Assembly: GCA_030390025.1 (NCBI GenBank)
Contig: JASTWF010000069.1
Coordinates: 744,001-808,000 of the forward strand
DNA length: 64,000 nt
DNA from: Squalus acanthias
Taxonomy: Eukaryota
Direction: 5' to 3'
The notes below the pieces were generated by a model. That model had not been told where the DNA came from and made no database searches. It was given only the letters and a program-made list of their open reading frames with translations. How positions within the stretch are numbered: the first letter of the stretch is position 1; the number at the start of each line of letters is the position of its first letter. Below, one piece after another: positions 1-26,166 of this stretch. A program made the translations under genes and the position numbers.

Positions 1-3000
1 GTACTGCCCCTCCGACAGTGCGGCGCTCCCTCAGTACTGCCCCTCCGACAGTGTCGCACTCCCTCAGTAATGCCCCTTCGACAGCGCAGCGCTCACTCAG
101 TACTGCCCCTCTGATAGTGCGACGCTCCCTCAGTACTACCCCTCCGACAGTGCGGCGCTCCCTCAGTACTGACCCACCGACAGAGCGGTGCTCCCTCAGT
201 ACTCCCTCTCCGACAGTGCAGCGCTCCCTCAGTACTGCCCCTCCGACAGTGCGGCGCTCCCGCAGTACTGCCCCTCCGACAGTGCAGCGCTCACTCAGTA
301 CTGCCCCTCCGAAAGTGCGGCGCTCCTTCAGTACTGCCCCTCCGACAGTGCGGCGTTCCCTCAGTACTGCCCCTCCGACAGTGCGGCGTTCCCTCAGTAC
401 TGCCCCTCCGACAGTGCGGCGCTCCATCAGTAATGCCCCTCTGAAAGTGCGGCGCTCCCTCAGTACTGCCCCACCGACAGTGCGGCGCTCACTCAGTACT
501 GCCCTTCCGAGAGTGCGGCGCTCCCTCAGTACTGCCCCTCCGACAGTGCAGCACTCCCTCAGTACAAGCCCCTCAGACAGTGCAGCGCACCCTCAGTACT
601 GCCCCTCCGACAGTGCGGCGCTCCCTCAGTACTGCCCCTCCGACAGTGCAGCGCTCCCTCAGTACTGTCCCTCCAACAGTGCGGCGCTCCCTCAGTACTG
701 ACACTCCGACAGTGCGGCGCTTCATCAGTAATGCCCCTCTGACAGTGCGGCGCTCCCTCAGTGCCGCCCCTCCGACAGTGCGGCCCTCCCTCAGTAGTGA
801 CCCTCCAACAGTGCGGCGCTCCCTCAGTACTGCCCCTTCGACAGTGCAGCGCTCCCTCAGTACTGCCCCCTCCAGCAGTGCGGCACTCCCTCAGTACTGA
901 TCCTCCGACAGTGTGGCGCTCCCTCAGTACTGCCCCTCCGACAGTGCGGCGCTCCATCAGTAATGCCCCTCTGACAGTGCGGGGCTCACTCAGTACCGCC
1001 GCTCCGACATTGCAGCGATCCCTCAGTACTCCCTCTCCGACAGTGCAGCGCTCCCTCAGTATTGCCCCTCCGACAGTGCAGCGCTCCCTCAGTAATGCCC
1101 CTTCGACAGCGCAGCGCTCACTCAGTACTGCCCCTCCGACAGTGTGACGCTCCCTCAGTACAGCCCCTCTGACAGTGCGGCGCTCCGTCAGTACTGACCC
1201 GACGACAGAGCGGTGCTCCCTCAGTACTGCCCCTCCGACAGTGCTGCGCTCCCGCAGTACTGAGCTACGACAGTGCAGCGCTCACTCAGTCCTGCCCCTC
1301 CAACAGTGCAGCGCTCCTTCAGTACTGCCCCTCCGACAGTGCGGCCTTCCCTCAGTACTGCCCCTCAGACAGTGCGGCGCTCCCTCAGTACTGCCCCTCC
1401 GACAGTGTCGCACTCCCTCAGTAATGACCCTTCGACAGCGCAGCGCTCACTCAGTACTGCCCCTCTGACAGTGCGACGCTCCCTCAGTACTACCCCTCCG
1501 ACAGTGCGGCGCTCCCTCAGTACTGACCCACCGACAGAGCGGTGCTCCCTCAGTACTGCCTCTCCGACAGTGCAGCGCTCCCTCAGTACTGCCCCTCCGA
1601 CAGTGCGGCGCTCCCGCAGTACTGCCCCTCCGACAGTGCGGCACTCCCTCAGTACTGCCCCTTAGACAGTGCGGCGCTCCATCAGTAATGCCCCTCTGAA
1701 AGTGCGGCGCTCCCTCAGTACTGCCCCACCGACAGTGCGGCGCTCACTCAGTACTGCCCTTCCGAGAGTGCGGCGCTCCCTCAGTAGTGCCCCTCCGACA
1801 GTGCAGCACTCCCTCAGTACAAGCCCCTCAGACAGTGCAGCGCACCCTCAGTACTGCCCCTCCGACAGTGCGGCGCTACCTCAGTACTGCCCCTCCAACA
1901 GTGCAGCGCTCCCTCAGTACTGGCCCTCCGACAGTGCGGCGCTCCCTCAGTACTGCCCCTACGACAGTGCGGCGCTCCCTCAGTACTGGCCCTCCGACAG
2001 TGCGGCGCTCCCTCAGTACTGCCCCTCCGACAGTACTGCCCCTCCGACAGTGCGGCACTCCTTTCAGTAATGCCCCTCCGACAGTGCAGCGCTCACTCAG
2101 TACTGCCCTCCGACAGTGCGGCGCTCCATCAGTAATGCCCCTCTGAAAGTGCGGCGCTCCCTCAGTACTGCCCATCCGCTTGTGCGGCGCTCCCTCAGTA
2201 CTACCCCTCCGACAGTGCTGCGCTCCAGCAGTACTGCCCCTCCGACAGTGCGGCGCTCCCTCAGTACTGCCCCTCTGACAGTGCTGCGCTCCCGCAGTAC
2301 TGCCCCTCCGACAGTGCAGAGCTCACTCAGTACTACCCCTCCGACAGTGCGGCGCTCCATCAGTACTGTCCCTCCGACAGTGCGGCGTTCCCTCAGTACT
2401 GCCCCTCCGACAGTGCGGTGCTCCCTCAGTATTGCCCCTGCGACAGTGCGGCGCTCCGTCAGTCCTGCCCCTCTGATGGTGCGGCGCTCCCTCAGTACTG
2501 TCCCTTCGACCGTGCGGCACTCCCTCAGTACTGCCCCTCCGACAGTGCAGCGCTCCCTCAGTACAAGCCTCTCAGACAGTGCAGCGCACCCTCAGTACTG
2601 CCCTTCCGACAGTGCGGCGCTCCCTCAGTACTGCCCCTCCGACAGTGCAGCAGTCCCTCAGTACAAGCCCCTCAGACAGTGCAGCGCACCCTCAGTACTG
2701 CCCCTCCGACAGTGCAGCGCTCCCTCAGTACTGCTGCTCCAACAGTGCAGCGCTCCCTCAGTACTGTCCCTCCAACAGTGCGGCGCTCCCTCAGTACTGC
2801 CCCTCCGACAGTGCGGCGCTTCATCTGTAATGTCCCTCTGACAGTGCGGCGCTCCCTCAGTTCCGCCCCTCCGACAGTGCGGCGCTCCCTCAGTACTGAC
2901 CCTCCGACAGTGCGGCGCTCCCTCAGTACTGCCCCTCCGACAGTGCAGCGCTCCCTCAGTACTGCCCCTCCGACAGTGCAGCGCTCCCTCAGTACTGCCC

Positions 3001-3346
3001 CCTTCAGCAGTGCAGCGATCACTCAGTACAGCCATTCCGACAGTGCGGCGCTCCCTCAGTATCTCCCCTCCGAAAGTGCAGCGCTGCTTCAGTGCTGCCC
3101 CTCCGACAGTGCAGCGCTCCCTCAGTACAGCCCCTCCGACAGTGCGGCGCTCCCTCAGTCCTGCCCCTCCGATAGTGCGGCGCCCCCTCAGTACTTCCCC
3201 CTCCAACAGTGCAGCGATCCCTCAGTACAGCCATTCCGACAGGTCGGCGCTCCCTCAGTACTGACCCTCCGACAGTGCGGCGCTCCCTCAGTACCTCCCC
3301 TCCGACAGTGCAGCGCTCGCTCAGTACCGCCCCTCCGACAGTGCAG
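1..3346. repeat. 33-bp minisatellite (CAGTACTGCCCCTCCGACAGTGCGGCGCTCCCT)n, SINE-derived
   Basis: About 100 variant units; ends at the gtgcag|tcaaaaggagtaac junction with CR1. Confidence 0.97.
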
Positions 3347-6277
3347 TCAAAAGGAGTAACACGGAGGATTGATGAAGGGAATGCAATGGATGTTGTCTGC
3401 ATGAATTTTTGGAAGGCGTTTGACAAAGTACCACATAGAAGGCTGGTTAATAAAATTGAGGCTCATGGAATAGGTGGGTCAGTGGCAGCTTGGATTGGAA
3501 TTGGCTTCAGGACAGAAAACAGCGTGTTGTGGTAAATGGCTGTTTTTCAGACTGGAGGATGGTAGACAGTGGTGTTCCCCAAGGGTCACTGCTGGAGCCA
3601 CTGTTTTATTTGATATATATAAATGACCTGGATATTGGAATACAGAGTAGAATTTATAAATTTGCCGCTGACACCAAAGTTGGGTGTTGTAATGGATTCT
3701 GACCCTGCGTGTCTCGCAGCCTGTGAGATTCACGCGGCTCTGTGCAGCCTGTATGTCAGTGCGGGTCTAGGCCTTGTTGCCTGTTCTGGTCTCCAGCCAG
3801 TCTGGGAACACTAGACACACCTGTGAGTGGTTCGAATCACTCTCCCTTACGGTTCTAGACACTGGACTTAGATGCGAGAGCAGTAATGGAGATAAAACTC
3901 ATGTAGACTTGGTTTGAATGGTACGAAATGGAAAATCTTTATTGCATGATACTTAAGATTATGAAATACATGTCATAAGCACAGATTAATGACAGTACAA
4001 TCTTACAAACAGTTATATAGTCGATCTTAGGGAAACGAGGAACGAACGGCACAAAGTAAATAGGGGCACACATTACAAATATCCTTAATCCTTAAACCCT
4101 CCCCTATCAATATCTATCCTAAACTAGATTCGTAGGATTTCGAGACTCATGCTCACCACTCGTGATAACTCGGAGAAATTCCGAATAGCTGATCGGATGT
4201 TTTTCACCGCAGCACCCACGTGTCGGTCAGGAGATCTCCTGGTCCCACTTGTTTACTTGCTTCTACTGCTCCGGCTAGCAGGCTGGACCGTCTGCTGTGA
4301 TGAAGACCTGTGTTGGTTGGTTTAACAGGTACTCTTGGAGCACAGTTGTCAATATCGTCGATACGATATGTTTTCACATTCCAGTTACTTTGGGCACAGT
4401 CCAGTTATCATCGATGCAATATGTTTCGTTATAAGTTCGAAGAAGTCTTCCTAGCAAGGAAAACTTGGATAATCGACCTACAGGCGCGGTCGGGATTTAC
4501 TGACCGTGGCGATGGATATGGTCTTCCTCTCTTCTCATCTCATCTCATCTCATCTCGGGCCTTCAGTTCCGCTGCCAGTTACCAACATAGGTCTTCGTTA
4601 CGCGACACGAGGTAGATCCGAACGGATCAGAAAGTTCAACAGTCTTTTCAGAAGAGGCAACAGGCAAGCAGAAGCCCAACTACGAGTACACAGGAGCAGC
4701 CACGAGGTTACGAATCGACCGGATAAAAGCACAGGAGCAGCCACGATGATAAGAGCAGCAAGAGCAAGAGAGAGAATGGACGGTTTGGAGCCTGCAATTA
4801 TAGTGCAAAATCTTCCGTTTCCCGCCCAACTATAATGTCCATTCTTTTGTTTAGGGTTTGGCGCCCAAATGTCTTGTATGGGTGATCTCCGTTCTTAATG
4901 GGTTTCGGGGCTACTCGTAAATGTCTGAGTACCTGTTAATATTTCTCCCATTGTTAAATCGGTCGGTGTTCTCCCTGGAGGGGTTTGGGGCTTCCAAGTG
5001 TCCTGTATAACTACCTGCTAACGGCTCTCTCATCGTAGAGTCGTTGGGATTTTACATATTAATGTCTTTTGGATGGGCCCTCGGTACAATGGCTTTCCTT
5101 TGTACCTGGGAGACCGATTTCAGTATCTATGTGTATACTGCAAACCCATAATGTCTCGTGTATTATCTTCACTGTGCTGAATCTTAATCGATCTTGCACA
5201 AATGTTTATTGGAACGCCATCTTGTCTGCCTGTTGAAAAGTCTAGAATGTTCTGTCACGAGGTGCGGCGGCCATTTTACAGGCTGCTTGTGTCCACTTTA
5301 AACCTGCCAGCATTCTGCTGAAATAAAAGCTGTTTGAACGAAACTCTGTGTTTTCTCCTTATTAATAAAATCGCGATATATTGCGAATTCTACAGTGTGT
5401 GGCAAACAGTGACGATGATACCAATCGACTGCAACAGGACATAGAAAGGCTAGCAGAATGGGCAGACAAGTGGCAGATGGAATTTAATACAGAGTAGTGT
5501 GAGGTGATGTATTTTGGCAGAAGGAACACTTAATGCCACAGTTTTAAAGAGTGTGCAGGGACAGAGGGACCTGGGAGGTAATTTGCATCGGTTCCTGAAG
5601 GTGGCAGGACATATTGAGAGTGTGGTTAACAAAGCAAATGGGATCTTCGGCTTCATAAATAGAGGCATTGAGTACAAAAGTAGAGAAGTTATGCTGAACC
5701 TTTATAAAGCGCTGGTTAGGCCACAACTGGAGTATTGCGTCCAGTTCTGGTCACCACACTTTAGGAAGGATGTGAAGGCCCTTGAGAGGTTGCAGAGGAG
5801 ATTTACCAGAATGGTTCCAGGGATGGGGGATCTTAGCTACAAGGACAGGTTGGAGAAGCTGGATTTGTTTTCATTAGAGCAAAGGAGGTTGAGGGGTGAT
5901 TTGATAGAGCTGTACAAGATTCTGATGGGTTTGGATAGGCTAGACAGGGAAAGGCTGTTCCCACTAGTTGATGGTACAAGGACTAGGGGACACAGATTAA
6001 TGTTTTGGGCAAGAGATACAGAGGGAATGTGAGGAAAAATGTTTTTACGCAGCGAGTGGTGAGGACCTGGAACTCGCTGCCGACGGAAGTGGTGGAAGCG
6101 GAGACACTCAATGTTTTCAAGGGGAGACTGGATAGGCACTTGTGGGAAATAAACTTGCAGGGCTACGGGGATAGAGCGGGGGGAATGGGACTGACTGGAT
6201 TGCTCTACAGAGAGCCGGCACGGACTCGATGGGCCGAATGGCCTCCTACTGTGCAGTATGACTCTATGACTCTATGA
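3347..6277 (+). mobile_element. 5'-truncated CR1 LINE (RT plus 3' UTR), interrupted by a solo LTR
   Basis: RT motifs [15 protein letters not shown] and LVRPQLEYCVQFWSP; (TATGACTC)n tail; frameshifted. Confidence 0.93.
3688..5394 (-). mobile_element. 1707-bp solo LTR with 4-bp TSD (GTGT)
   Basis: TGTA...TACA termini. GTGT duplicated at 3684-3687 and 5395-5398. The empty site is seen in the paralogous CR1 near 18380. AATAAA on the - strand near 3940. Confidence 0.85.
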
Positions 6278-7662: not shown

Positions 7663-8028
7663 CTGTATTGTCAGAGGAGTGGAAAGGCGAGACTCCACGA
7701 GAGGTGACAGCACAGGAAGGTTTGTGTGCACAGATTCCATGTCATTACACTTATCCATCGCGTCTGGCAAACCAACCACGAGTTGGAATCTGGATTAATT
7801 ATGGGGAACGGAGATCATCGTCTATAGCCTTTCACTCCAAGGATCACAATCACTCGTTGCCACAGTTTCGCCATCGGACACGGCTGTCTGGAGACCTGAG
7901 AGATGGTGACTGTTCCCTGATTATAAACAACATCACACAGCGAGACGCAGGACCTTATTATTTCAGAATAGAATTTGACAACTGGAATCAGTTTGACTAC
8001 TGGCCTGGAACACAGCTTCATGTTTCTG
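7663..8028 (+). CDS. Siglec V-set exon (copy 1)
   Basis: ctctccccag|CT GTA TTG ... TCT G|gtaagt, 366 nt, open. Siglec Cys pattern and YYFRIE are present. Confidence 0.93.
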
Positions 8029-8598: not shown

Positions 8599-8829
8599 TT
8601 GCAAATTGTTTCTGTCCTGCCATGGAGAGGATTTAATTTAACATTGGCGGAGATCTCTGAGCGAGTGGAGAGCCAGTATTCCTGGGGCTGTGACCAGGTC
8701 CTCCACCCCCACCCAGTATTGTCAATTCAAGGGTCTCGGAGAGAAAGTGCATTATGCTCAGTGACAGAAACTCCGCCAATCCTGGAAATAGGAAATAATA
8801 TTTTCTTACAGATTCACACAAAGTTACAT

Positions 8830-9297: not shown

Positions 9298-9387
9298 AAA
9301 GTACTTTCTCTTGCGGGACTGTGATTTCTATTTGAACTGATGCCTCAAGTTATATTTATCTAAAAGCATCCATTCTCTGTGTGTTAG

Positions 9388-9681
9388 ATTTCACAGATAA
9401 ACCCAGGATATTCCCTGCTGAAATGATTGCAGGAAAGCGTGTGAACGTAAGCTGCACCTTCAACACCACGTGCACTGGAACAGCACCTGTCTTAACCTGG
9501 GTCAATCACACTGACGTACCCGGGTCAGTCTCAAACAGTGTAACTCAGCATGGCGTCACTCTGACATATACTTCTGTTCTGTCCCTGATTCCATCACTCA
9601 AACACCACGGACAAACTCTCAGCTGCAGAGTCAGATATCCATCTGTTTCATCGGAGCAGACCCTCGCAGTCACTTTGCAAT
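9388..9681 (+). CDS. Siglec C2-set exon (copy 1)
   Basis: gtgttag|AT ... CAA T|gtaagt, 294 nt, open, phase 1/1. Confidence 0.93.
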
Positions 9682-9884
9682 GTAAGTACGGGCTTCCTTA
9701 ATTCTACATTCCCTGTGACAGTCCAGATTGTGCACAGCAAGATCCCACAAGCAGCAATGTTCCGATGACAAGATCATCTGTATTTTACAGCTGGAGCCTT
9801 TGTGGAATAGTGTCAGGGGGACATTTATATCCACCTGAGAGGGCAGACGGTGCCTCAGGTTATAAAATTCATGTGAAAGACGGC

Positions 9885-12800
9885 ACCTCCAACAGTGCGG
9901 CGCTCCCTCAGTACGGCCCCTCGGACAGTGCGGCGCTCGCTCAGTACTGCCCCTTCGACAGGTCGTGGCTTCCTCAGTAATGCCCCTCCAACAGTGCGGC
10001 GCTCCCTCAGTACTGCCCCTCCGACAGTGCGGCGCTCCATCAGTAATGCCCCTCTGACAGTGCGGGGTTCAATCAGTACCGCACCTCCGACAGTGCAGCG
10101 CTCTCTCAGTACTGCCTCTGCGACAGTGCAGCACTCCCTCAGTATTGCACTTCCGACAGTGCATCATTCCCTCAGTGCTCCCCCTCAGACAGTGCGGCGC
10201 TCCCTCAGTACTGCACCCCCGACAATGCGGCGCTCCCTCAGTACTGCCCCTCCGACAGTGCAGCGCTCCCTCAGTAATGCCCCTTCGACAGCGCAGCGCT
10301 AACTCAGTATTGCCCCTCCGACAGTGCGACGCTCTCTCAGTACTGCCCCTCCGACAGTGCGGCGCTCCCTCAGTACTGCCCCTCCGACAGTGCGGCGCTC
10401 CCTCAGTACTGCCCCTCCGACAGTGCAGCGCTCCATCAGTAATGCCCCTCTGAAAGTGCGGCGCTCCCTCAGTACCACCCCTCCGACAGTGCGGCGCTCC
10501 CTCAGTACCACCTCTCCGACAGTGCAGCACTCCCACAGCACTGCCCCCTCCGCCAGTGCGGTGCTCCCTCAGTACTGCCCCTCCGCCAGTGCGGCGCTCC
10601 CTCAGTACTGCCCCTCAGACAGTGCAGCCTACCCTCAGTACTGCTCCTCGGACAGTGCGGCGCTCCCTCAGTACTGCCCCTCCGACAGTGCGGCGCTCCC
10701 TCAGTACTGCCCCTCCGACAGTGCGGTGCTCCCGCAGTACTGCCCCTCCGACAGTGCGGCGCTCACTCAGTATTGCCCCTCCGACAGTGCAGCAATCCCT
10801 CAGTACTGCCCCTCCGACAGTGCAGCGCTCCCTCAGTACTGGCCCTCCGACAGTGCGGCGCTCCCTCAGTACTGCCCCTCCGACAGTGCGGCGCTCCCTC
10901 AGTACTGTTATCCGACAGTGCGGCGCTCCCTCAGTATTGCCCCTCCGATAGTGCGTCACTCCCCCAGTACTGACTCTCCGACAATGCGGCGCTCCATCAG
11001 TAATACCCCTTTGACAGTGCAGCGCTCCCTCAGTACCTCCCCTCCGACAGTGCAGCGCTCCCTCAGTACTGCCTCTCCGACAGTGCAGCGCTCCCTCAGT
11101 ACTGCCCCTCCGATAGTGCGGCGCTCCCTCAGTACTGACCCCCTGACAGTGCGGCGCTCCCTCAGTGCTGCCCCTCCGACAGTGCGGCACTCCCTCAGTA
11201 CTGCCCCTCCGACAGTGCAGCCGCTCCCTCAGTACTGCCCCTCCGACAGTGCGGCGCTCCCTTATTACTGCCCCCTCCGACAGTGCGGTGCTCCCTCAGT
11301 ACTGCCCCTCCGACTAGTGCGGCGCTCCCTCAGTACTGCCCCTCCGACAGTGCGGCGCTCCCTCAGTACTGCCCTCCGACAGTGCGGCGCTCCCTCAGTA
11401 CTGCCCCTCCGACAGTGCGGCGCTCCCTCAGTACTGCCCCTCCGACAGTGCGGCGCTCCCTCAGTACTGCCCCTCCGACAGTGCGGCGCTCCATCAGTAC
11501 TGCCCCTCCGACAGTGCAGGCGCTCCCTCAGTACTGCCCCTCCGACAGTGCAGGCGCTCCCTCAGTACTGCCCCTCCGACAGTGCGGCGCTCCCTCAGTA
11601 CTGCCCCTCCGACAGTGCAGCCTCCCTCAGTACTGCCCTCCGACAGTGCGGCGCTCCCTCAGTACTGCCCCTCCGACAGTGCGGCGCTCCCTCAGTACTG
11701 CCCCTCGGACAGTGCAGGCGCTCCCTCAGTACTGCCCCTCCGACAGTGCGGCGCTCCCTCAGTACTGCCCCTCCAACAGTGCGGCGCTCCCTCAGTACTG
11801 CCCCTCCGACAGTGCGGCGCTCCATCAGTAATGCCCCTCTGACAGTGCGGGGTTCAATCAGTACCGCACCTCCGACAGTGCAGCGCTCTCTCAGTACTGC
11901 CTCTGCGACAGTGCAGCACTCCCTCACTATTGCACTTCCGACAGTGCATCATTCCCTCAGTGCTCCCCCTCAGACAGTGCGGCGCTCCCTCAGTACTGCA
12001 CCCCCGACAATGCGGCGCTCCCTCAGTACTGCCCCTCCGACAGTGCAGCGCTCCCTCAGTAATGCCCCTTTGACAGCGCAGCGCTAACTCAGTATTGCCC
12101 CTCCGACAGTGCGACGCTCTCTCAGTACTGCCCCTCCAACAGTGCGGCGCTCCCTCAGTACTGACACTCCGACAGTGCGGCGCTCCCTCAGTACTGCCCC
12201 TCCGACAGTGCAGCGCTCCATCAGTAATGCCCCTCTGAAAGTGCGGCGCTCCCTCAGTACCACCCCTCCGACAGTGCGGCGCTCCCTCAGTACCACCTCT
12301 CCGACAGTGCAGCACTCCCACAGCACTGCCCCCTCCGCCAGTGCGGTGCTCCCTCAGTACTGCCCCTCCGCCAGTGCGGCGCTCCCTCAGTACTGCCCCT
12401 CAGACAGTGCAGCCTACCCTCAGTACTGCTCCTCGGACAGTGCGGCGCTCCTTCAGTACTGCCCCTCCGACAGTGCGGCGCTCCCTCAGTACTGCCCCTC
12501 CGACAGTGCGGTGCTCCCGCAGTACTGCCCCTCCGACAGTGCGGCGCTCACTCAGTATTGCCCCTCCGACAGTGCAGCAATCCCTCAGTACTGCCCCTCC
12601 GACAGTGCAGCGCTCCCTCAGTACTGCCCCTCCGACAGTGCGGCGCTCCCTCAGTACTGCCCCTCCGACAGTGCGGCGCTCCCTCAGTACTGTCCCTCCA
12701 ACAGTGCGGCGCTCCCTCAGTACTGCCCTCCGACAGTGAGGCTCTCCCTCAGTTCGGCCCCTCCGACAGTGCGGCGCTAACTCAGTACTGCCCATCCGCT

Positions 12801-15800
12801 GGTGCGGCGCTCCCTCACTACTGCCCCTCTGACAGTGCGGCACTCCATCAGTACTTCCCCTCCGTCAGTGCAGCGCTCCATCTGTAATGCCCCCTCCGCC
12901 AGTGCGGCGCTCCCTCAGTACTGCCCCTCCGACAGTGCGGCGCTCACTCAGTACTGCCCCTCCGACAGTGCAGCACCACCTCAGTACTGCCCCTCAGACA
13001 GTGCAGCGTACCCTCAGTACTGCCCCTCGGACAGTGCGGCGCTCCCTCAGTACCGCCCGTCCGACAATGCGGCCCTCCCTCAGTACCGCCTCTCCGACAG
13101 TGCGGCGCTCCCTCATTACTGCCCCCTCCGCCAGTGCGGTGCTCCCTCAGTACTGCCCCTCCGATAGTGCGGCGCTCCCTCAGTACTGCCCCTCCGATAG
13201 TGCAGCGCTCACTCAGTAATGCCTCTCAGACAGTGCGGCGCTCCCTCAGTACTGCCCCTCGGACAGTGCGGCGCTCCCTCAGTACTGCCCCTCCGACAGT
13301 GCGGCGCTCCCTCAGTACTGCCCCTCCGACAGTGCGACGCTCCCGCAGTACTGCCCCTCCGACAGTGCGGCGCTCCCTCAGTACTGCCCCCTCCGACAGT
13401 GCGGCGCTCCCTCAGTACTGCCCCTCCAATAGTGCGGCGCTCACTCAGTACTGCCTCTCAGACTGTGCAGCCTACCCTCAGTAATGCCCCTCGGACAGTA
13501 CGGTGCTCCCTCAGTACTGGTCCTCCGACAGTGCGGCGCTCCCTCAGTACAGGCCCACCGACTATGCGGCACTCCGACTATGCGGCACTCCCTCAGTAAT
13601 GCCCCTCTGACAGTACGGCGCTCCCTCAGTACTGCCCCTCCAACAGTGCAGCGCTCCCTCAGTACTGCCCCTCCGACAGTGCGGCGCTCCATCAGTAATG
13701 CCCCTCTGACAGTGCGGGGTTCAATCAGTACCGCACCTCCGACAGTGCAGTGCTCTCTCAGTACTGCCTCTCCGACAGTGCAGCGCTCCCTCAGTATTGC
13801 ACTTCTGACAGTGCATCATTCCCTCAGTGCTCCCCCTCAGACAGTGCGGCGCTCCCTCAGTACTGCACCCACGACAATGCGGCGCTCCCTCAGTACTGCC
13901 CCTCCGACAGTGCAGCGCTCCCTCAGTAATGCCCCTTCGACAGCGCAGCGCTAACTCAGTATTGCCCCTCCGACAGTGCGACGCTCTCTCAGTACTGCCC
14001 CTCCGACAGTGCGGCGCTCCCTCAGTACTGACACTCCGACAGTGCGGCGCTCCCTTAGTACTGCCCCTCCGACAGTGCAGCGCTCCATCAGTAATGCCCC
14101 ACTGAAAGTGCGGCGCTCCCTCAGTACCGCCCCTCCGACAGTGCGGCGCTCCCTCAGTACCGCCTCTCCGACAGTGCAGCACTCCCACAGCACTGCCCCC
14201 TCCGCCAGTGCGGTGCTCCCTCAGTACTGCCCCTCCGCCAGTTCGGCGCACCCTCAGTACTGCCCCTCAGACAGTGCAGCCTACCCTCAGTACTGCCCCT
14301 CGGACAGTGCGGCGCTCCCTCAGTACTGCCCCTCCGACAGTGCAGCGCTCCCTCAGTACTGCCCCTCCGACAGTGCGCGCTCCCTCAGTACTGCCCCTCC
14401 GACAGTGCGGCGCTCCCTCAGTGCTGTCCCTCCAAAAGTGCGGCGCTCCCTCAGTACTGCCCTCCGACAGTGCGGCGCGCCCTCAGTTCGGCCACTCCGA
14501 CAGTGCGGCGCTAACTCAGTACTGCCCATCCGCCGATGCGGCGCTCCCTCACTACTGCCCCTCTGACAGTGCGGCACTCCATCAGTACTTCCCCTCCGTC
14601 AGTGCAGCGCTCCATCTGTAATGCCCCCTCCGCCAGTGCGGCGCTCCCTCAGTACTGCCCCTCAGACAGTGCAGCGTACCCTCAGTACTGCCCCTCGGAC
14701 AGTGCGGCGCTCCCTCAGTACCGCCCCTCCGACAATGCGGCCCTCACTCAGTACCGCCTCTCCGACAGTGCGGCGCTCCCTCGTTACTGCCCCCTCCGCC
14801 AGTGCGGTGCTCCCTCAGTACTGCCCCTCCGATAGTGTGGCGCTCCCTCAGTACTGCCCCTCCGATAGTGCAGCGCTCACTCAGTAATGCCTCTCAGACA
14901 GTGCGGCGCTCCCTCAGTACTGCCCCTTGGACAGTGCGGCGCTCCCTCAGTACTGCCCCTCCGACAGTGCGGCGCTCCCTCAGTACTGCCCCTCCGACAG
15001 TGCGACGCTCCCGCAGTACTGCCCCTCCGACAGTGCAGCGTACCCTCAGTACTGCCCCTCGGACAGTGCGGCGCTCCCTCAGTACCGCCCCTCCGACAAT
15101 GCGGCCCTCCCTCAGTACCGCCTCTCCGACAGTGCGGCGCTCCCTCATTACTGCCCCCTCCGCCAGTGCAGTGCTCCCTCAGTACTGCCCCTCCGATAGT
15201 GCGGCGCTCCCTCAGTACTGCCCCTCCGATAGTGCAGCGTTCACTCAGTAATGCCTCTCAGACAGTGCGGCGCTCCCTCAGTACTGCCCCTCGGACAGTG
15301 CGGCGCTCCCTCAGTACTGCCCCTCCGGCAGTGCGGCGCTCCCTCAGTACTGCCCCTCCGACAGTGCGACGCTCCCGCAGTACTGCCCCTCCGACAGTGC
15401 AGCGCTCCCTCAGTACTGCCCCCTCCGACAGTGCGGCGCTCCCTCAGTACTGCCCCTCCAATAGTGCGGCGCTCACTCAGTACTGCCTCTCAGACTGTGC
15501 AGCCTACCCTCAGTAATGCCCCTCGGACAGTACGGTGCTCCCTCAGTACTGGTCCTCCGACAGTGCGGCGCTCCCTCAGTACAGGCCCACCGACTATCCG
15601 GCACTCCGACTATGCGGCACTCCCTCAGTAATGCCCCTCTGACAGTACGGCGCTCCCTCATTACTGCCCCTTCGACAGGTCGTGGCTCCCTCAGTACTGC
15701 CCCTCCAACAGTGCGGCGCTCCCTCAGTACTGCCCCTCCGACAGTGCGGCGCTCCATCAGTAATGCCCCTCTGACAGTGCGGGGTTCAATCAGTACCGCA

Positions 15801-18043
15801 CCTCCGACAGTGCAGTGCTCTCTCAGTACTGCCTCTCCGACAGTGCAGCGCTCCCTCAGTATTGCACTTCCGACAGTGCATCATTCCCTCAGTGCTCCCC
15901 CTCAGACAGTGCGGCGCTCCCTCAGTACTGCACCCCGACAATGCGGCGCTCCCTCAGTACTGCCCCTCCGACAGTGCAGCGCTCCCTCAGTAATGCCCTT
16001 TCGACAGCGCAGCGCTAACTCAGTATTGCCCCTCCAACAGTGCGACGCTCTCTCAGTACTGCCCCTCCGATAGTGCGGCGCTCCCTTAGTACTGCCCCTC
16101 CGACAGTGCAGCGCTCCATCAGTAATGCCCCACTGAAAGTGCGGCGCTCCCTCAGTACCGCCCCTCCGACAGTGCGGCGCTCCCTCAGTACCGCCTCTCC
16201 GACAGTGCAGCACTCCCACAGCACTGCCCCCTCCGCCAGTGCGGTGCTCCCTCACTACTGCCCCTCCGCCAGTGCGGCGCTCCCTCAGTACTGCCCCTCA
16301 GACAGTGCAGCCTACCCTCAGTAGTGCCCCACGGACAGTGCGGCGCTCCCTCAGTACTGCCCCTCCGACAGTGCAGCGCTCCCTCAGTACTGCCCCTCCG
16401 ACAGTGCGCGCTCCCTCAGTACTGCCCCTCCGACAGTGCGGCGCTCCCTCAGTACTGTCCCTCCGAAAGTGCGGCGCTCCCTCAGTACTGCCCTCCGACA
16501 GTGCGGCGCGCCCTCAGTTCGGCCACTCCGACAGTGCGACGCTCCCGCAGTACTACCCCTCCGACAGTGCGGCGCTCCCTCAGTACTGCCCCCTCTGCCA
16601 GTGCGGCGCTCCCTCAGTACTGCCCCTCCAATAGTGCGGCGCTCACTCAGTACTGCCTCTCAGACTGTGCAGCCTACCCTCAGTAATGCCCCTCGGACAG
16701 TACGGCGCTCCCTCAGTACTGGTCCTCCGACAGTGCGGCGCTCCCTCAGTACTGACCCACCGACTATGCGGCACTCCGACAGTACGGCGCTCCCTCAGTA
16801 CTGACCCTCCGACAGTGCGGCACTTCATCAGTAATGCCCCTCTGAGAGTTCGGCGCTCCCTCAGTACTGCCCCTCGGACAGTGCGGCGCTCCCTCAGTAC
16901 TGCCCCTCCGACAGTGCGGCGCTCCATCAGTAATGCCCCTCTGACAGTGCGGCGCTCCCTCTTTACCACCCCTCCGACTGTGCAGCGCTCCCTCAGTACT
17001 GGCCCTCCGATAGTGCGGCGCTCCCTCAGTACTGCCCCTCCGACAGTGCGGCGCTCCCTCATGACTGCCCCCTCCGCCAGTGCGGCGCTCCCTCAGTACT
17101 GCCCCTCCGACAGTGCGGCGCTCACTCAGTACTGCCCCTCCGACAGTGCAGCACCAACTCAGTACTGCCCCTCAGACAGTGCAGCGTACCCTCAGTACTG
17201 CCCCTCCGACAGTGCGGCGCTCCCTCAGTACCGCCCCTCCGACAGTGCGGCACTCCCTCAGTACTGCCCCTCCGACAGTGCGGCGCTCCCTCATTACTGC
17301 CCCCTCCGCCAGTGCGGCGCTCCCGCAGTACTGCCCCTCCGATAGTGCGGCACTCACCCAGTACTGCCCCTCAGACAGTGCAGCCTACCCTCAGTACTGC
17401 CCCTCGGACAGTGCGGCGCTCCCTCAGTACTGCCCCTCCGACAGTGCGGCGCTCCCTCAGTACTGCCCCTCCGACAGTGCGGCACTCCCTCAGTACTGCC
17501 CCTCCGACAGTGCTGCGCTCACTCAGTACTGCCCCCGGACAGTGCAGCGCTCCTTCAGTACTGCCCCTCCGAAAGTGCGGCGTTCCCTCAGTACTGCCCC
17601 TCAGACAGTGCAGCGCTCACTCAATACTGCCCCTCCGACAGTGTAGCGCTCCTTCAGTACTGCCCCTCCGACAGTGCGGCGTTCCCTCAGTACTGCCCCT
17701 CCGACGGTGCGGCGCTCCATCAGTAATGCCCCTCTGAAAGTGCGGCGCTCCCTCAGTACTGCCCCTCCGACTGTGCGGCGCTCACTCAGTACTGCCCCTC
17801 CGACAGTGCAGCTCTCCCTCAGTACCTGCCCCTCTGATAGTGCGGCGCTCCCTCATTCCTGCCCCTCCGACAGTGCGGCGTTCCCTCAGTACTGTCCCTC
17901 CGACAGTGCTGCACTCCCTCTGTACTGCCCCTCCGACAGTGCAGCGCTCCCTCAGTATTGCCCCTCCGACAGTGCGGCGCTCCCTCAGTGCAGCCATTCC
18001 GACAGTGCAGCGCTCCCTCAGTACCGCCCCTCCGACAGTGCAG
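9885..18043. repeat. 8.2-kb 33-bp minisatellite array with higher-order blocks, growing out of a SINE remnant (9730-9890)
   Basis: About 245 units. Starts at gaaagacggcacctcc of the SINE and ends at the same CR1 junction as 3346. Confidence 0.97.
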
Positions 18044-19395
18044 TCAAAAGGAGTAACACGGAGAATTGATGAAAGGAATGCAATGGATGTTGTCTACATG
18101 AATTTTTGGATGGCGTTTGACATAGTACCACATAGAAGGCTGGTTAATAAAATTGAGGCTCATGGAATAGGTGGGTCAGTGGCAGCTTGGATAAGGAATT
18201 GGCTTCAGGACAGAAAACAGCGAGTTGTGGTAAATGGCTGTTTTTCAGACTGGAGGATGGTAGACAGTGGTGTTCCCCAAGGGTCAGTGCTGGGGCCAGT
18301 GTTTTATTTGATATATATAAATGACCTAGATATTGGAATATAGAGTAGAATTTCTAAATTTGCCGCTGACACCAAACTTGGGTGTGTGGCAAACAGTGAC
18401 GATGATTCCAATCGACTGCAACAGGACATAGAAAGGCTCGCAGAATGGGCAGATATGTGGCCGATGGAATTTAATACACTGAAGTGTGAGGTGATACATT
18501 TTGGCAGAAGGAACAGGGAGAGGCAATATACACTTAATGGCACAGTTTTAAAGAGTGTGTAGGGACAGAGGGACCTGGGAGTTAATGTGTATAGGTTCCT
18601 GAAGGTGGCGGGACATATTGAGAGAGTGCTTAGCAAAGCAAATGGGATCTTGGGCTTCATAAATAGAGGTCATGATGTGGAGATGCCGGCGTTGGACTGG
18701 GGTGGACAAAAATGAGAAGTCGCACTGTAATTTTAAATAAATCTGTTGGACTATAACCTGGTGTTGTGCGACTTCTCATTTTCATAAATAGAGGCATTGA
18801 GTACAAAAGTAGAGAAGTTATGCTGAACCTTTATAAAGCGCTGGTTCGGCCACAACTGGAGTATTGCATCCAGTTCTGGTCACCACACTTTAGGAAGGAT
18901 GTGAAGGCCCTTGAGAGGTTGCAGAGGAGATTTACCAGAATGGTTCCAGGGATGGGGGATCTTAGCTACAAGGACAGGTTGGAGAAGCTGGATTTGTTTT
19001 CATTAGAGCAAAGGAGGTTGAGGGGTGATTTGATAGAGGTGTACAAGATTATGATGGGTTTGGATAGGCTAGACAGGGAAAGGCTGTTCCCACTAGTTGA
19101 TGGTACAAGGACTAGGGGACGCAGATTAAGGTTTTGGGCAAGAGATACAGAGGGAATGTGAGGAAAAATGTTTTTACGCAGCGAGTGGTGAGGACCTGGA
19201 ACTCGTTGCCGACGGAAGTGGTGGAAGCGGAGACACTCAATGTTTTCAAGGGGAGACTGGATAGGCACTTGAGGGAAATAAACTTGCAGGGCTACGGGGC
19301 TGGAGCGGGGGAATGGGACTGACTGGATTGCTCTACAGAGAGCCGGCACGGACTCGATGGGCCGAATGTGCTCCTTCTGTTCCACATGACTCTAT
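18044..19395 (+). mobile_element. 5'-truncated CR1 LINE, paralogue of 3347-6277
   Basis: Same 5' junction, RT motifs, stops. Confidence 0.93.
18670..18780. mobile_element. 111-bp insertion, probably a Penelope-like element terminus, with a 14-bp target duplication
   Basis: TTCATAAATAGAGG at 18656-18669 and 18781-18794. Internal inverted repeat AAAATGAGAAGTCGCAC / GTGCGACTTCTCATTTT. Family call is from recall only. Confidence 0.6.
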
Positions 19396-20131
19396 GGGGT
19401 AAAAATTGAGTCGCGCCCCATTTGGTGCGCTAACCTCGCCGGGGCGCGACTTTTAGCGCCCCGAAAAAATTAGCGGCCCCGCGCCGGAACTTCAGTGGTT
19501 GCGCCCCAAGAGGGAAGCGGGGCGCCACTGGAAGCACCCCGCATCCCTCTTGGGGCGCTGCGAGGGAATATCCTGGCGCCGCGGTATTGCAGGCCTTCCT
19601 CCCCTTCTTAAAGGGGAGGGACCCTGCGCAGCGCGAACCGGGGCCCAGCTGGGCCCCCAGGGATCGGGAGTGCCGGCAAAAGAGCCCGGCACTCAAGAGA
19701 AGTGCCGGGCTCTTGGAGCGCAGCCGGCACTTCACGGTGGGGGGGCTTCACGGGGGCCGGGGACAGCAACGGGGGCAGGTGCTGGCAGGCGGCCAGCAAC
19801 AAAAATGGCCGCCTGCCACCTCCCCTTTAAATATCGCCGCCCCGGCCGCACGTACGCCTCCCTGAACCCGTCGGACATAGCGTCTGGCGGTAAATCAGGG
19901 GGCGCGACTGAAGATCGCGGCTGGAGCGCGAGCGGGGTGCTGCACACGGCGATGACGTCATCGCCGGCGGCGCAGCGCCACAGGGCGCTACCGGCTGGCG
20001 CCGCCGCTAACCTCCCGCTGAATTTTTCGGGAGGCGTGGGCGGCGCTGCGCCCGGGCGTTAGCTGCTTTACGCCCCATTAGCGCCCTCTTAAGGCGCTAA
20101 CGGGAGGCGCAAGCAGCTGAATTTTTCCCCC
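19396..20131. mobile_element. MITE family B (GC-rich, PIF/Harbinger-like), 3-bp TSD TAT
   Basis: GGGGTAAAAATTGAG ... CTGAATTTTTCCCCC TIRs; TAT on both sides; inserted in the CR1 tail. Confidence 0.82.
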
Positions 20132-20403
20132 TATGACTCTAGTGATTCAGGATGGAGATAGTGGCGTGAGTTCTGACGGATCCTAATCCACTGTTCCTGC
20201 CTTGAAAGTCAGCACAGAATATACCTCAATGGGTGCATCATTTAGGCATTGTGTTGGGTGGAAGACTTCACTGAACATGGTCCTGAGGTCTGTGAGCCAA
20301 TATAGAATGAACTGTTCCACTCCCGTGCCGAGGATTCCCTTCCATCCGTTGGTTGATGGAGCCATCTGTTGGGTCAAGAATTGTCTTCACATACAGAAAC
20401 ATT

Positions 20404-21168
20404 GGCCCAGAAATTTGACTCGGAGGCTTGCCGCAGGGGTAAGGATCGCGCGCGATGTTACCTACCGCGCCTGCCGTTGTGTTTCGGGCCCACAGGATCT
20501 TCGGGTCCTGGGTCTCTCCCTGGTGCCGGCGCGCAGTGTGTGCGTGTCCCAGGGGCGCAGTTAGTGCGATGCGACCTCTGGAATCACGTGGGCCATGGAG
20601 AGCCAATGGCATCATGCCATCTTTCATTCATAGATTTGACAGGAGACCTGTCAAATCTATGAATACAGATTGCCCCCTAAAGAACAGCTAAACATCAAAT
20701 AAATTTAAAAATAAACCCGTCACATTAATAAAATAATTATAGTTAAATAAATTAACCACTTTAAAAAAAATTAAAATTTTTGATAAAATTTAAATTCTTT
20801 TTAAAAGTTATAAAAATAAACTTACCTTTCTTTAAAGGCTCTAAAAAAGAGAAACCTGTTGAAAAAAATGTAAAATTATACTTAATTAACTACTTACCTT
20901 GTTAAAAGGGGGTCTTACGCCTCCTTTTTACTTGTGTAAAATCTTCCATACTTAACCTCGCGTTGAAACCTGAAAAAAAACCTAAGTGTGCTGCGTGCGC
21001 GCAGCCTCTAGTGCGCACGCGGTTCACCTAGGAACCGCCCCCTTCGCCATACCGGAAGTGCAGGTTTCCCGCGCATGCGCAGTGCATGCAGGAAACCGGC
21101 ACTTCGGGACTGAATACGGGTGAGTACACAAGCGGGTACTCTCCCGTATTCGGACGAATTTTTGGGCC
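20404..21168. mobile_element. MITE family A (duplicate of 6545-7308)
   Basis: GGCCCAGAAATT / AATTTTTGGGCC TIRs at the same insertion site. Confidence 0.82.
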
Positions 21169-21520
21169 AATTGTGTGCTGAGGAAAAGGCATGAGGACAG
21201 GCGGGTGCGATGTCCACGGGCAAGGTGACTATGAGTCTGTCCGACATGTGGGTTCACTATAATGCTCCCCAATCACAGAACACGGTGCGCAGTGTTTGAT
21301 ATTCATTCTTGGATTGTGTTGTCTCAGTAGCTCTTGTCCTTCTGGGTGGTAGAGGTCGCAGGGGAGGGCGGTGCTGTCAATGTAACCTTGGTGAGTTCCT
21401 TGTGTGTCCTGTAGATGGTCCACACTGCAGACACTGTGCGCCAGTGACGGAGGGGGTGGATATCGAGTCCAGTGGAGCGACAAGCCATCCAGTGCTAAAT
21501 ATTGATATTTCTCTCCCCAG

Positions 21521-21886
21521 CTGTATTGTCAGAAGAGTGGAAAGGCGAGACTCCACGAGAGGTGACAGCACAGGAAGGTTTGTGTGCACAGATTCCATGT
21601 CATTACACTTATCCATCGCGTCTGGCAAACAAACCACGAGTTGGAATCTGGATTAATTATGGGGAACGGAGATCATGGTCTATAACCTTTCACTCCAAGT
21701 ATCACAATCACCTGTTGCCACAGTTTCACCATCGGACCCGGCTCTCTGGAGACCTGAGAGATGGTGACTGTTCCCTGATTATAAACAACATCACACAGCG
21801 AGACGCAGGACCTTATTATTTCAGAATAGAATTTGACAACTGGAATCAGTTTGACTACTGGCCTGGAACACAGCTTCATGTTTCTG
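21521..21886 (+). CDS. Siglec V-set exon (copy 2)
   Basis: Same splice sites as copy 1. Six aa differences from copy 1; essential Arg retained. Confidence 0.93.
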
Positions 21887-23247
21887 GTAAGTGCTGGGTT
21901 ATAATTACTCCACAATTCACGCTCAACAGTCAGTGGGAAATAACATAAACTGTGGCGGTTACACATTAACACAAAACACAGCTTATTATAACACAGCGTC
22001 TGATTATCAATAACCTGGCGATACCTTCCAGTTCAGTCCTAAAGCAACCTCTAATACTCACTTTATTATCAATGATTGAATGTCTTGACTGTGTCCATCA
22101 TTGTTATCAGGTTATCGACTCCCATCTATCTCTCTAATCGTGTTTAAAAGTCTTACATACAGACAAAAGACAGTCTCACATTTCTCCAGCACCTTTCACC
22201 ACCTCAGGAGGTCCCAAAGCGCTTCACAGACAATGCAGTTATTTTTTTGAAGTGTGGTCACTGTTGTAATGTAGGAAACGTGGCAGCTAGTTTGTGCACA
22301 GCAAGCTCCCACAAACAGCAATGTAATAATGACCAGATCATTTGGTTTAACACTTCAAAAGTACTTCATTGGCTGTGAAGCACTTTGGGTCATCCTGAGG
22401 TCATGAAATGCACTGTGGGAATGCAAGTCTTTCTTTTAAGTGTTGGTTGAGGGATAATTGCAAATTGTTTCTGTTCTGCCGTGGAGAGGATTTAATTTAA
22501 CATTGCAGGAGATCTCTGAGCGAGTGGAGAGCCAGTGTTCCTGGGGCTGTGAACAGGTCCTCCACCCCCACCCAGTATAGTCAATTCAAGGGTGTCGGAG
22601 AGAAAGTGTATTAAGCTCAGTGACACGACACTCCGCCAATACTGGAAATAGGAAACAATATCTTCTTACAGATTCACACAAAGTTACATAGAGTCTGCCG
22701 CACAGAAAGAGGCCATTCAGCACAACTGGTCCATCCCGCTGTTTATGCTCCACACCAGCCTCCTCCCAACCCTTTTCATCTCACCCCATCAACATATCCT
22801 TCTATTCCTTTCTCCCTCGTGTGTTTATTCAGCTTCCCCTTAAATGCATCTCTGCTATTCGCCTCAACCACTCCCTGTGGTAGCGAGTTCCCCATTCTCA
22901 CCACTCTCTGGGGAAAGAAGTTTCTCCTGAATTCCCTATTGGATTTATCAGTGACTATCTTATATTGATGGCCCCTAGTTCTGGTCTCCCCCACAAGTGG
23001 AAACATCTTCTCTACGTCTACCCTATCGAAACCCTTCATAATTTTAAAGACCTCTATCAGGTCACCCCTCAGCCTTCTCTTTTCTAGAGAAAAGAGCCCC
23101 AGCCTGTTCAATCTTTCCTGATCGTTGTAACCTCTCAGTTCTGGTATTATCCGTGTAAAAGTACTTTCTCTTGCGGGACTGTGATTTCTATTTGAACTGA
23201 TGCCTCACGTTATATTTATCTAAAAGGTTCCATTCTCTGTGTGTTAG

Positions 23248-23541
23248 ATTTCACAGATAAACCCAGGATATTCCCTGCTGAAATGATTGCAGGAAAGCGT
23301 GTGAACGTAAGCTGCACCTTCAACACCACGTGCACTGGAACGGCACCTGTCTTAACCTGGGTCAATCCCACTGACGCACCCGGGTCAGTCTCAAACAGTG
23401 TAACTCAGCATAGCGTCACTCTGACATATACTTCTGTTCTGTCCCTGATTCCATCACTCAAACACCACGGACCAACTCTCACCTGCAGAGTCAGATATCC
23501 ATCTGTTTCATCGGAGCAGACCCTCGCACTCACTGTGCAAT
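23248..23541 (+). CDS. Siglec C2-set exon (copy 2)
   Basis: Same splice sites, 294 nt, open. Confidence 0.93.
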
Positions 23542-23744
23542 GTAAGTACGGACATCCTTAATTCTACATTACCCGTGAATGTCTACTTTGCGCACAGCAA
23601 GATCCCACAAGCAGCAATGGTTCTGATGTCAAGATCATCTGTATTTTACAGATAGGACTCTTCATTGAATAGTGTCATGGGATCTTTTCCATCCACCTGA
23701 GAGGGCAGACGTTCCCTCGGTGTAATGTCTCATGTGAAAGACAG

Positions 23745-24336
23745 CACTTCCAACAGTGCGGCGCTCCCTCAGTACTGTCCCTCCGACAGTGCAGCACTCC
23801 CTCAGTACTGCCCTTCCGACAGTGCAGCGCTCCCTCAGTACTGCCCCTCCGACATTGCGGCGCTCCCTCAGTACTGCCCCTCCGACATTGCGGCGTTCCC
23901 TCAGTACTGCCCCTCCGACATTGCGGCGCTCCCTCAGTACTGCCCCTCCGACAGTGCGGCGCTCCCTCAGTACTGCCCCTCCGACAGTGCAGCTCTCCCT
24001 CAGTAATGCCCCTCCGACAGTGCGGCGCTCCCTCAGTAATGCCCCTCCGACAGTGCGGCGCTCCCTCAGTACTGCCCCTCCGACAGTGCGGCGCTCCCTC
24101 AGTACTGCCCCTCCGACAGTGCGGCGCTCCCTCAGTACTGCCCCTCCGACAGTGCAGCGCTCCCTCATTACTGCCCCTCCGACAATGCGGCACTTCCTCA
24201 GTACTGCCCCTCCGACAGAGCGGCGCTCCCTCAGTACTGCCACTCCGACAGTGTGGTGCTCCCTCAGTACTGCCCCTCCGACAGTGCGGCGCTCCCTCAG
24301 TACTGACCTTCCGACAGTGCGGCGCTCCCTCAGTAC
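23745..24336. repeat. 33-bp minisatellite (~18 units) after C2 copy 2
   Basis: Same unit; preceded by a SINE remnant at 23590-23745. Confidence 0.95.
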
Positions 24337-25307
24337 CAATCATCTTCGGCTGCTTCATCAATGACCTTCCCTCCAACATCAGGTCAGAAATGGGGATGTT
24401 CGCTGATGACTGCACAATTTTCAGCGCCATTCGCAACTTGTCAGATAATGAAGCAGTCCATGCCCCCATGCAACAAGACCTGGATGACATTCAGGCTTGG
24501 GCTGATAAGTGGCAGGTAACATTCATGTCACACAAGTGCCAGGCAATGACTATCTCCAACAAGCGAGAGTCTAAACACCGTCCCTTGACATTCAATTGCA
24601 TTACCTTTGCCGAATTCCCCCACCATCAACATCCTGGGGGTCACCATTGAACAGAAACTTAACTGGACCAGCCACATAAATACTGTGGCCACAAGAGCAG
24701 GTCAGAGGCTGGGTATTCTTCAGCGAGTGTCTCATCTCCTGACTCCCCAAAGCCTTTCCACCATCTACAAGGCACAAGTAAGTAGTGTGATGGAACATTC
24801 TCCACTTGCCTGGACGAGTGCAGCTCCAACAACACTCAAGAAGCTCGACACCATCCAAGCAAAGCAGCCCGCTTGATTGGCACCCCATCCACCAGCTTAA
24901 ACATTCACTCCCTCCACCACCGGCGCACCGTGGCTGCAGTGTGTACCATCTACAAGATGCACTGCAGCAACTCGCCAAGGCTTCTTCGGCAGCACCTCCC
25001 AAACCCGCGACCTCTTCCACCTAGAAGGACAAGGGCAGCAGGCGCATGGGAACACCACCACCTCCAAGTTCCCCTCCAAGTCACACACCATCCTGACTTG
25101 GAGATATATCGGCGATCCTTCATCGTCGCTGGGTCAAAATCCTGGAACTCCCTCCCTAACAGCACTGTGGGAGCACCTTCACCACACGGACTGCAGCGGT
25201 TCAAGAAGGCGGCTCACCACCACCTTCTCAAGGGGCATCTAGGGATGGGCAATAAATGCCGGCCTTGCCAGCGACGCCCACATCCCGAGAATGAATTAAA
25301 AATAAAA
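24337..25307 (+). mobile_element. L2/CR1-group LINE 3' fragment (distinct family)
   Basis: FINDLP...MFADD RT motif; tail GGCAATAAATGCCGGCCTTGCCAGCGACGCCCACATCCC. Confidence 0.85.
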
Positions 25308-25972
25308 TTTACAGGACAGAAATTATTTTGTGATTCACGTGAGATGGTGTGTGTACGTGAGAAGTGAGCTGGATCAAGTCATTTCCCTCAAGCCTGTGAT
25401 CGCTCCCTGAGTAAAGATGACTTGATTCGCGCAGTGCACTGTACTGGCTACTTCATCTCACCCCATCAACACATCCTTCTATTCCTTTCTCCCTCGTGTG
25501 TTTATCCAGCTTCCCCTTAAATGCATCGCTGCGATTCGCCGCAACCACTCCCTGCGGTGGCGAGTTCCACATTCTCCCCACTCTCTGGGTAACGAGCAGA
25601 AGTGATTATTAAGCGGGGCGTGTAACGGGAGTCCGATCCGATAGCGCCCCAACTGCACAACTGCCCGTCATGAATTTTCACCCTGTGATAAATGTTTCCA
25701 GATCATTCTACAGCACAACCCTGCACACGTCAATAGATCAGGCCCTTGGACAGGGTGTAAAACAGTCCACTAACGCCAGCGTTCCACCCTGAGGAGCGAG
25801 TTACAATTGCTCCCTCTCACAGTGTTTGCCATGAAATCATTCCTTACAGATGTTTTAGTCGATGTATGAATGTGACACCAAATATTCCAGTAATATTAAG
25901 CTTGATTGCTGATCGCACAGCGAGGGATCGAAAGCGGAGAGTAAGTCATCGTTTCTTGCTGTATGTTTCCAG

Positions 25973-26166
25973 GCACTCTGCACACGATTCAGATCCTGGG
26001 AATACGAGCTGCGATATTCATTCTCGCCGTCATCGCCACTGTCACTGGGGTTCGCGTCTGGGACCGAAGACCAGCTAAAGGAAGCCGAGAGCCTGTTGAG
26101 AGCTGTGAGGATACGGGAGTCGGGAATCAGCGGCCTGACCACTTATTTCATCGGACAACTGACTAA
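25973..26166 (+). CDS. TM plus short-tail exon of an activating-type Siglec (TLHTIQILGIRAAIFILAVIATVTGVRVWDRR...TTD*)
   Basis: Acceptor tttcttgctgtatgtttccag| in phase 1, compatible with the C2 donor at 23541. Hydrophobic span contains an Arg; the tail has no Tyr. AATAAA at 26868-26873. Confidence 0.75.

Follow-up and report, generated by a model that had tools for sequence, protein, structure and literature searches.

The window analysed here is a 64,000-nucleotide stretch of the Squalus acanthias genome (3.7 Gb), positions 744001-808000 of contig C3542, which was read over 444,001-1,108,000. Its first part belongs to a gene for a Siglec-like receptor whose order on the plus strand is a leader exon, three modules that each consist of a V exon and a C2 exon, and a terminal transmembrane (TM) exon with an arginine. 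Modules 1 and 2 lie in the window, and the leader and module 0 lie upstream of it. The exons are as follows (plain coordinates are positions in the window, those prefixed C3542 are contig positions):

C3542:734009-734048, plus strand: leader, upstream of the window
C3542:740248-740615, plus strand: V0 exon, frameshifted as assembled
C3542:742256-742549, plus strand: C2(0) exon
7663-8028, plus strand: V1 exon, a Siglec-type V-set with Cys21, Cys26, Cys83 and Arg101 (P0001 numbering)
9388-9681, plus strand: C2 exon of module 1 (a match to a contig from run X10, see below, begins at 9387)
21521-21886, plus strand: V2 exon, differing from V1 at 10 nt and 6 amino acids
23248-23541, plus strand: C2 exon of module 2
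25973-26166, plus strand: terminal exon with a stalk Cys, a TM segment bearing Arg near its N-terminal end, a tyrosine-free tail and the stop

All acceptors are AG, every V and C2 donor reads GTAAGT, the phase is 1 throughout, and the lengths of V1, V2 and the C2 exons in the window are divisible by 3. An earlier sequence-only reading had described two V-C2 modules 13.86 kb apart with all exons in phase 1 and an in-frame splice from C2(1) to V2. The V1-to-V2 spacing is 13,858 bp, the phases agree, and the splice reads VTLQ-S-VLSEEWK. That reading had also anticipated at least one further module and a MIRKSY-like leader upstream, and both are found at the positions given above. The inter-module introns measure 9.1 kb (0-to-1) and 11.8 kb (1-to-2).

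The absence of a leader or TM exon between the modules, likewise proposed from the letters alone, held in three types of search. BLASTN with the leader, both TM types and the cytoplasmic exons gave zero matches between contig positions 734063 and 769955, and tblastn with 117 relatives as queries returned no extra family exon and two weak intron matches with 2 queries each. A scan for hydrophobic exons, which recovered the true TM exon as a control, was empty for the interval from module 1 to module 2; from module 0 to module 1 it returned two sites, both within an insert resembling a long terminal repeat (LTR), the stronger at window position 4213. The hydrophobic stretch that follows the acceptor-like site at 4213 is unrelated to the TM exons of the family and is probably there by chance. 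We thus rejected a separate leader or family TM exon for each module. A stalk micro-exon resembling the SGGE of relatives was sought in the gene and not found. Splicing of C2 to TM creates a stalk Cys codon both in this activating-type gene (9681/25973) and in an inhibitory gene of the window (54665/49647), relatives having Tyr or Asp there, and this residue is possibly a homodimer cysteine. By eye, a further acceptor-like site lies at 25921, 52 nt 5' of the TM acceptor, and its use would shift the frame with loss of the TM segment.

V1 matches Siglec-5, Siglec-8, MAG and CD33 at E values of ~1e-12 to 1e-13. The V-set arginine that binds the sialic-acid carboxylate in Siglecs (PMC13358205, PMC13220637) is present on strand F: V1 and V2 read YYFRIE where Siglec-5 has YFFRVE (E ~3e-13), and V0 has the same codons. 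Cys21, Cys26 and Cys83 align with Siglec-5 and CD33 and predict an intra-V disulfide plus a cysteine for a V-to-C2 interdomain bond; in a close relative, the Cys in the B-C loop of C2 lines up with CD33 C169, which takes part in such a bond (PMC7426717). Pfam assigns V-set and C2-set_2 domains, which together with the leader and TM exons describe a type I membrane protein. Siglecs other than Siglec-12 have a single N-terminal V-set, and this gene has three V exons, each with its own C2. We use the label "Siglec-like", not Siglec, as sialic-acid binding is here a prediction from sequence.

Features shared with CD33-related Siglecs are the clustering of the genes, their fast-evolving V domains and the paralogue exchange evident from mosaic identities. 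The V-C2 of one relative scores 98 bits against CD33, 93 against Siglec-5 and 83 against MAG, at most a lean towards descent from the mammalian CD33-related cluster. The TM Arg, the tail devoid of Tyr and of an immunoreceptor tyrosine-based inhibitory motif (ITIM), and the presence of ITIM paralogues with a similar ectodomain are traits of the activating member of a receptor pair. Related Arg-type TMs occur in 7/117 relatives (one motif), and the place of the Arg near the N-terminal end of the helix is one we take to be that of FcR-gamma-coupled receptors. Among named proteins, those nearest to the V exon come from sharks, with at most 79% identity.

Junctions between the modules

Each module is followed by an array of a 33-bp minisatellite. 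Between modules the array gives way to a hybrid fragment of a CR1 element, a long interspersed nuclear element (LINE):

1..3346, plus strand: 3' portion of the 33-bp minisatellite array (4.6 kb in total) located in the intron that follows C2(0)
3347..6270, plus strand: hybrid CR1 fragment of the module 0-to-1 junction, broken by the LTR-like insert at 3688-5394
9880..18043, plus strand: 33-bp minisatellite array of 8.2 kb, within the module 1-to-2 intron
18044-19396, plus strand: hybrid CR1 fragment of the module 1-to-2 junction
about 19397-20130, plus strand: GC-rich insert private to the module 1-to-2 junction
23741..24340, plus strand: short 33-bp minisatellite with a LINE fragment of a different sort behind it, the arrangement also seen in activating-type genes with a single module

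The LTR-like insert is 1.7 kb long with TG...CA ends and a GTGT target duplication, and has copies at 895620 and 906685 (89.7% alike).

Single-module inhibitory genes of the cluster carry one CR1 copy ahead of V and another directly behind the C2-minisatellite, in the same orientation and 92% alike. The hybrid junction occurs twice in the three-module gene and once in an intact two-module ITIM paralogue. All three junctions start on the minisatellite side like the downstream CR1 copy, share one derived 5' boundary and two derived letters, and end in V-upstream sequence, with 10-11 of the last 12 diagnostic sites of the upstream type. These shared hybrids point to one unequal-crossover origin that was copied later. 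A crossover of the CR1 behind a C2-minisatellite with the CR1 ahead of a V would have produced the first tandem, and later exchange would have carried it to activating and inhibitory tails. C2(0), together with the 180 nt downstream of it, matches the corresponding part of the first module in the inhibitory two-module gene letter for letter, the downstream flank of module 2 is of the activating type (3-4 differences), and the 6.2 kb on the leader side share 98.1% identity with another gene of the activating type. V1 and V2 form a sister pair, their 10-nt distance comparing with 17-35 nt to other copies.

Transcripts, the module 0 frameshift and competing explanations

Three runs from one study (X10-X12), which we guess to be RNA, none being on record as such, reach V and C2, whereas their depth is zero in four unique intron bins to which a DNA run extends. 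Contigs from X10 and X11 match window positions 7870-8028 with 1 difference and end at the V donor. Over 7872-8028 they differ from V1 at 0 positions, from V2 at 2 and from the other 12 copies at 7-13. As these contigs end at 8028, a V1/V2-type exon appears to be transcribed and spliced in other individuals. Over the 300 nt preceding each of V1 and V2, most single-module paralogues differ at 0-6 positions, and the donors are identical. On the basis that there is one leader, that the splice signals resemble those of single-module paralogues and that every join is in frame, concatenation of the modules is the better reading compared to a mutually exclusive choice among them, and would give a multivalent product. 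By default the C2 donor would be spliced to the next V acceptor, and whole modules could be skipped in frame. The spare cysteine of each V would pair with its own C2 so that each V-C2 unit is a rigid pair and such pairs stack, the presence of two or three V domains with the Arg might confer greater avidity or wider specificity for sialylated or pathogen ligands, and the TM arginine would recruit an adaptor with an immunoreceptor tyrosine-based activation motif.

V0 is 368 nt long and has two +1 insertions (C3542:740378 and 740587), one of them a T and one a G, each extending a short run. Because V0 is frameshifted as assembled, the gene could be read as a pseudogene. Open frames to the TM exon exist when V0 is skipped (615 amino acids) and when module 0 is skipped (517 amino acids, V1-C2-V2-C2-TM), and leader-V1-C2-TM and leader-V2-C2-TM are each open over 297 amino acids; if the insertions are real, only V0-skipping transcripts would yield protein. 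V0 lacks an in-frame substitution stop on either side of its indels, stops occurring only in the shifted frames. Across the cluster, 3/14 V exons and 0/13 C2 exons are frameshifted. The five single-base indels responsible are all copy-specific and confined to two hypervariable patches, and four clearly, and one possibly, are length changes of short homopolymers. In an alignment of V0 and its surroundings with the nearest paralogue (6,250 columns), 2 single-base gaps fall in V0 and 3 in the other 5.9 kb. No +1 row at the V0 sites was seen among the listed contigs matched to module 1, a comparison in which an 88% cut may lose V0-specific contigs, two rows lie outside those listed, and X1, read to ~55%, may represent another individual. 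As copy-specific indels lie in patches where polishing between paralogues is expected to fail, we consider it more likely than not, judging from these patterns, that the two insertions are consensus errors rather than real. Against this, an in-frame 3-nt deletion in the same patch in two copies and one X11 contig shows that real indels occur there. Unit-length errors in the minisatellite (29/247 units, long array) were dropped as a gauge of assembly noise because some of them appear again 2,031 bp away and are probably genuine.

Taken together, we lean towards the view that these exons form a single Siglec-like gene, with a frameshift in its first V in the assembly, that was likely built by CR1 crossover, is likely spliced module after module and is predicted to encode a multivalent activating receptor. 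A number of observations weigh against this view. As assembled, the leader-V0 frame stops after 59 amino acids. No C2-to-V joint is among the 15 joints listed, 306 more being obscured by joints of short interspersed nuclear elements and LINEs, and the individuals concerned may have an allele with a single module from which the V1/V2-type transcripts derive. Just 0.68 of the sequence words occur in the best DNA run. Several AATAAA sites lie inside the 9.1- and 11.8-kb introns, and the middle of the CR1 junction is a mixture of both letter types with no clean switch. Strict V-C2-V-C2 order occurs in 0/117 close relatives, and all multi-module relatives are automatic gene models, with near-identical repeats in some (elephant, turtle).

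The strongest competitor, which we regard as unlikely while giving it some weight, is a pseudogene allele in which both V0 insertions truly exist, the predominant transcript contains V0 and is degraded, and the sole remaining role of V1 and V2 is to donate sequence for gene conversion in the cluster. The assembled frameshift and the 3-nt deletions fit such an allele, as do the other broken pieces of the cluster (three V-less leaders, one orphan V and two further frameshifted V exons besides V0) and the null alleles of human activating Siglecs (PMC6288428). On the other hand, the five copy-specific indels are what polishing failure between paralogues would be expected to leave, V0 is free of in-frame substitution stops, and neither V1 and V2 with their C2 exons nor the TM exon is broken. 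An assembly artefact, either a false duplication or separate genes misjoined through long minisatellite arrays, would be in keeping with two junctions that cross arrays of a regionally abundant repeat (4.6 kb and 8.2 kb), and no junction-spanning read was seen. Yet the two modules of the window share 95.5% identity over 3.6 kb (4.4% divergence) and carry private insertions, and no N gap occurs between contig positions 673301 and 1108000, so that false duplication was rejected as unlikely; the minisatellite-CR1-V junction has a derived sequence of its own that occurs three times, and a misjoin would require genes of the form leader-minisatellite-hybrid CR1-V, which number 0 among 13 leaders. 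We therefore regard an artefact as highly improbable.

Regulated choice, in which one V-C2 module per transcript is joined to the constant activating exon to vary ligand specificity, seems very unlikely, if marginally less so than an artefact. Both 297-amino-acid frames are open, the modules differ at predicted ligand-facing positions, and many isoforms are listed for elephant and shark clusters. There is, however, only one leader, the C2 donor joins the next V acceptor in frame at standard sites, and the splice signals equal those of constitutive copies. Inverted repeats between introns, sought within the window as RNA docking elements, are short with ~78-83% identity, and steric exclusion is inapplicable where a cassette comprises two exons and long introns. 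The sequence-only reading had offered both outcomes, a multivalent lectin and selection of one module; the former stands as the better reading, and the latter is left without positive support by the single leader and in-frame joins. Early termination in the long introns, giving secreted V-C2 forms or forms anchored at 4213 with downstream modules rarely used, is the least probable explanation of all. The AATAAA sites in both introns, the acceptor-like site with its hydrophobic frame at 4213 and short V-C2 models without TM among relatives (P0016, P0047) would accord with it; but the 4213 stretch lies within the LTR-like insert and is absent from other junctions, AATAAA is common in AT-rich introns, and V1/V2-type exons are transcribed and spliced.

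The surrounding cluster

The region 444-1108 kb holds 10 genes with leader, V and C2, two of them multi-module. Module number per gene across the cluster is 0, 1, 2 or 3, with activating and inhibitory tails. Representative members are:

47320..61714, minus strand: single-module inhibitory-type paralogue, CR1 copies flanking V-C2-minisatellite on both sides
Exons of this paralogue, minus strand: leader 61714-61675, V 57430-57065, C2 54958-54665, TM 49647-49551, cytoplasmic 49080-48999, ITIM 47562-47320
C3542:1012454-1041971, minus strand: intact inhibitory-type two-module gene, leader-V-C2-V-C2-TM-ITIM, open over 593 amino acids
C3542:887846-893855, plus strand: zero-module gene, leader to activating TM exon without V or C2

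Nine intact 366-nt V exons gave a ratio of nonsynonymous to synonymous differences (pN/pS) of 3.0, with pN > pS in 35/36 pairs, and 13 C2 exons gave 0.86; these values are uncorrected, the pairs are non-independent, and 5/14 V exons were dropped for indels. Between V1 and V2, pN is 0.023 and pS 0.043, with no amino-acid excess.

The activating TM exons on the contig vary by an indel of a 10-nt repeat late in the tail, which yields three C-termini among 6 copies. By hit coordinates only, not at base level, the rest of the genome contained no V-C2 tandem lacking an intervening leader. On C3, a broken V-V-C2 arrangement lies at C3:186411867-186414805 (minus strand), and a V-C2 gene followed by three tandem half-C2 matches lies at C3:188480530-188486483 (plus strand). 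Within window positions 31662-40416, with long GC-rich repeats at its flanks, a 677-amino-acid open frame (34622-36655, minus strand) has what we take to be gag-, protease- and integrase-like parts, presumably those of a retrotransposon.

Comparison with known systems

Among the 117 longer shark and ray relatives, 31 have adjacent V-V domains. One relative is modelled as V-C2-TM-V-C2 and resembles a merge. An extra B-C loop Cys is found in 38/49 V domains that directly follow a V compared to 1/109 other V domains (P0004-P0033; 12 partial domains were excluded and the rows include isoforms and kin). It occupies the position of the C2 Cys that matches CD33 C169, and likely, as far as the alignment tells, replaces C2 as disulfide partner in a V-to-V bond. 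Its occurrence in V-after-V domains suggests that this family does produce proteins with multi-V chains. The extra Cys is missing from V1 and V2, which have no need of it, since each retains its own C2. In distant V-V proteins the rule applied to 0/16. The shark and ray multi-V models ("Siglec 12", "CD33-like") belong to the same family, with V domains 50-79% identical and the same two TM types; they stack 2-7 V domains per model, mostly with the extra Cys, whereas the Squalus gene repeats V-C2 without it.

Strict V-C2-V-C2 order occurs in 9/132 distant proteins, from softshell turtle, arapaima, caecilian (2), African elephant, tilapia, two frogs (Darwin's frog and Xenopus) and croaker. These share the domain order, but are automatic annotations at ~30-35% identity with independent origins. 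Siglec-12 is V-V-C2, its first C2 being Ig3 (PMC6288428), and has more than one V-set like the shark gene, which differs in giving each V its own C2 and in its activating-type tail. Given the V-V and V-C2-V-C2 relatives just counted, the layout stands out less than the sequence-only reading had implied. We found no description of multi-V or (V-C2)n shark Siglecs, nor of the V-after-V cysteine, in the literature searched, which covers few subscription journals; that cysteine would amount to a structural rule across sharks and rays.

The paired CD33-related Siglecs (Siglec-5/14, Siglec-11/16) offer a close likeness: a V-set with the Arg and Cys pattern, and near-identical ectodomains on ITIM and charged-TM tails, with ectodomain similarity and paralogue exchange described for paired Siglecs (PMC6288428, PMC13358205). 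The shark gene differs from them in having three V-C2 modules in one gene and in the place of its TM Arg, close to the N terminus of the helix as in FcR-gamma-coupled receptors; a partnership with DAP12 would be hypothetical. It also departs from cassette systems of the protocadherin or Dscam1 type, as there is one leader and neighbouring modules join in frame at standard sites. A system in which splicing selects among three diversified V-C2 cassettes for attachment to a single activating tail, such that single cells differ in both valency and ligand specificity, is improbable. If true, it would mean a modular Siglec system in cartilaginous fishes with two routes to multivalency, V-on-V stacks with a compensating cysteine and LINE-built V-C2 arrays common to activating and inhibitory partners. 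If the modules are concatenated, valency is a trait that varies among paired Siglec-like receptors. Paired receptors, exon-set duplication and fast V evolution are principles already known, and the gene, whose product is a prediction, may be a null allele.

The V-C2-V-C2 ectodomain of CD4 and LAG-3 has been ascribed to tandem duplication of a V-C2 exon set, and WxC is the C2 strand F motif of these proteins (PMC10768021). The motif is absent from the shark C2, which reads TLSC or TLTC, the tails differ, the shark V is of the Siglec type and the shark duplication is recent (4.4% diverged). CD4/LAG-3 is a mechanistic precedent and not a relative, and the Squalus gene is likely a recent instance of the V-C2 tandem duplication proposed for it, one in which the recombination scar can still be read.

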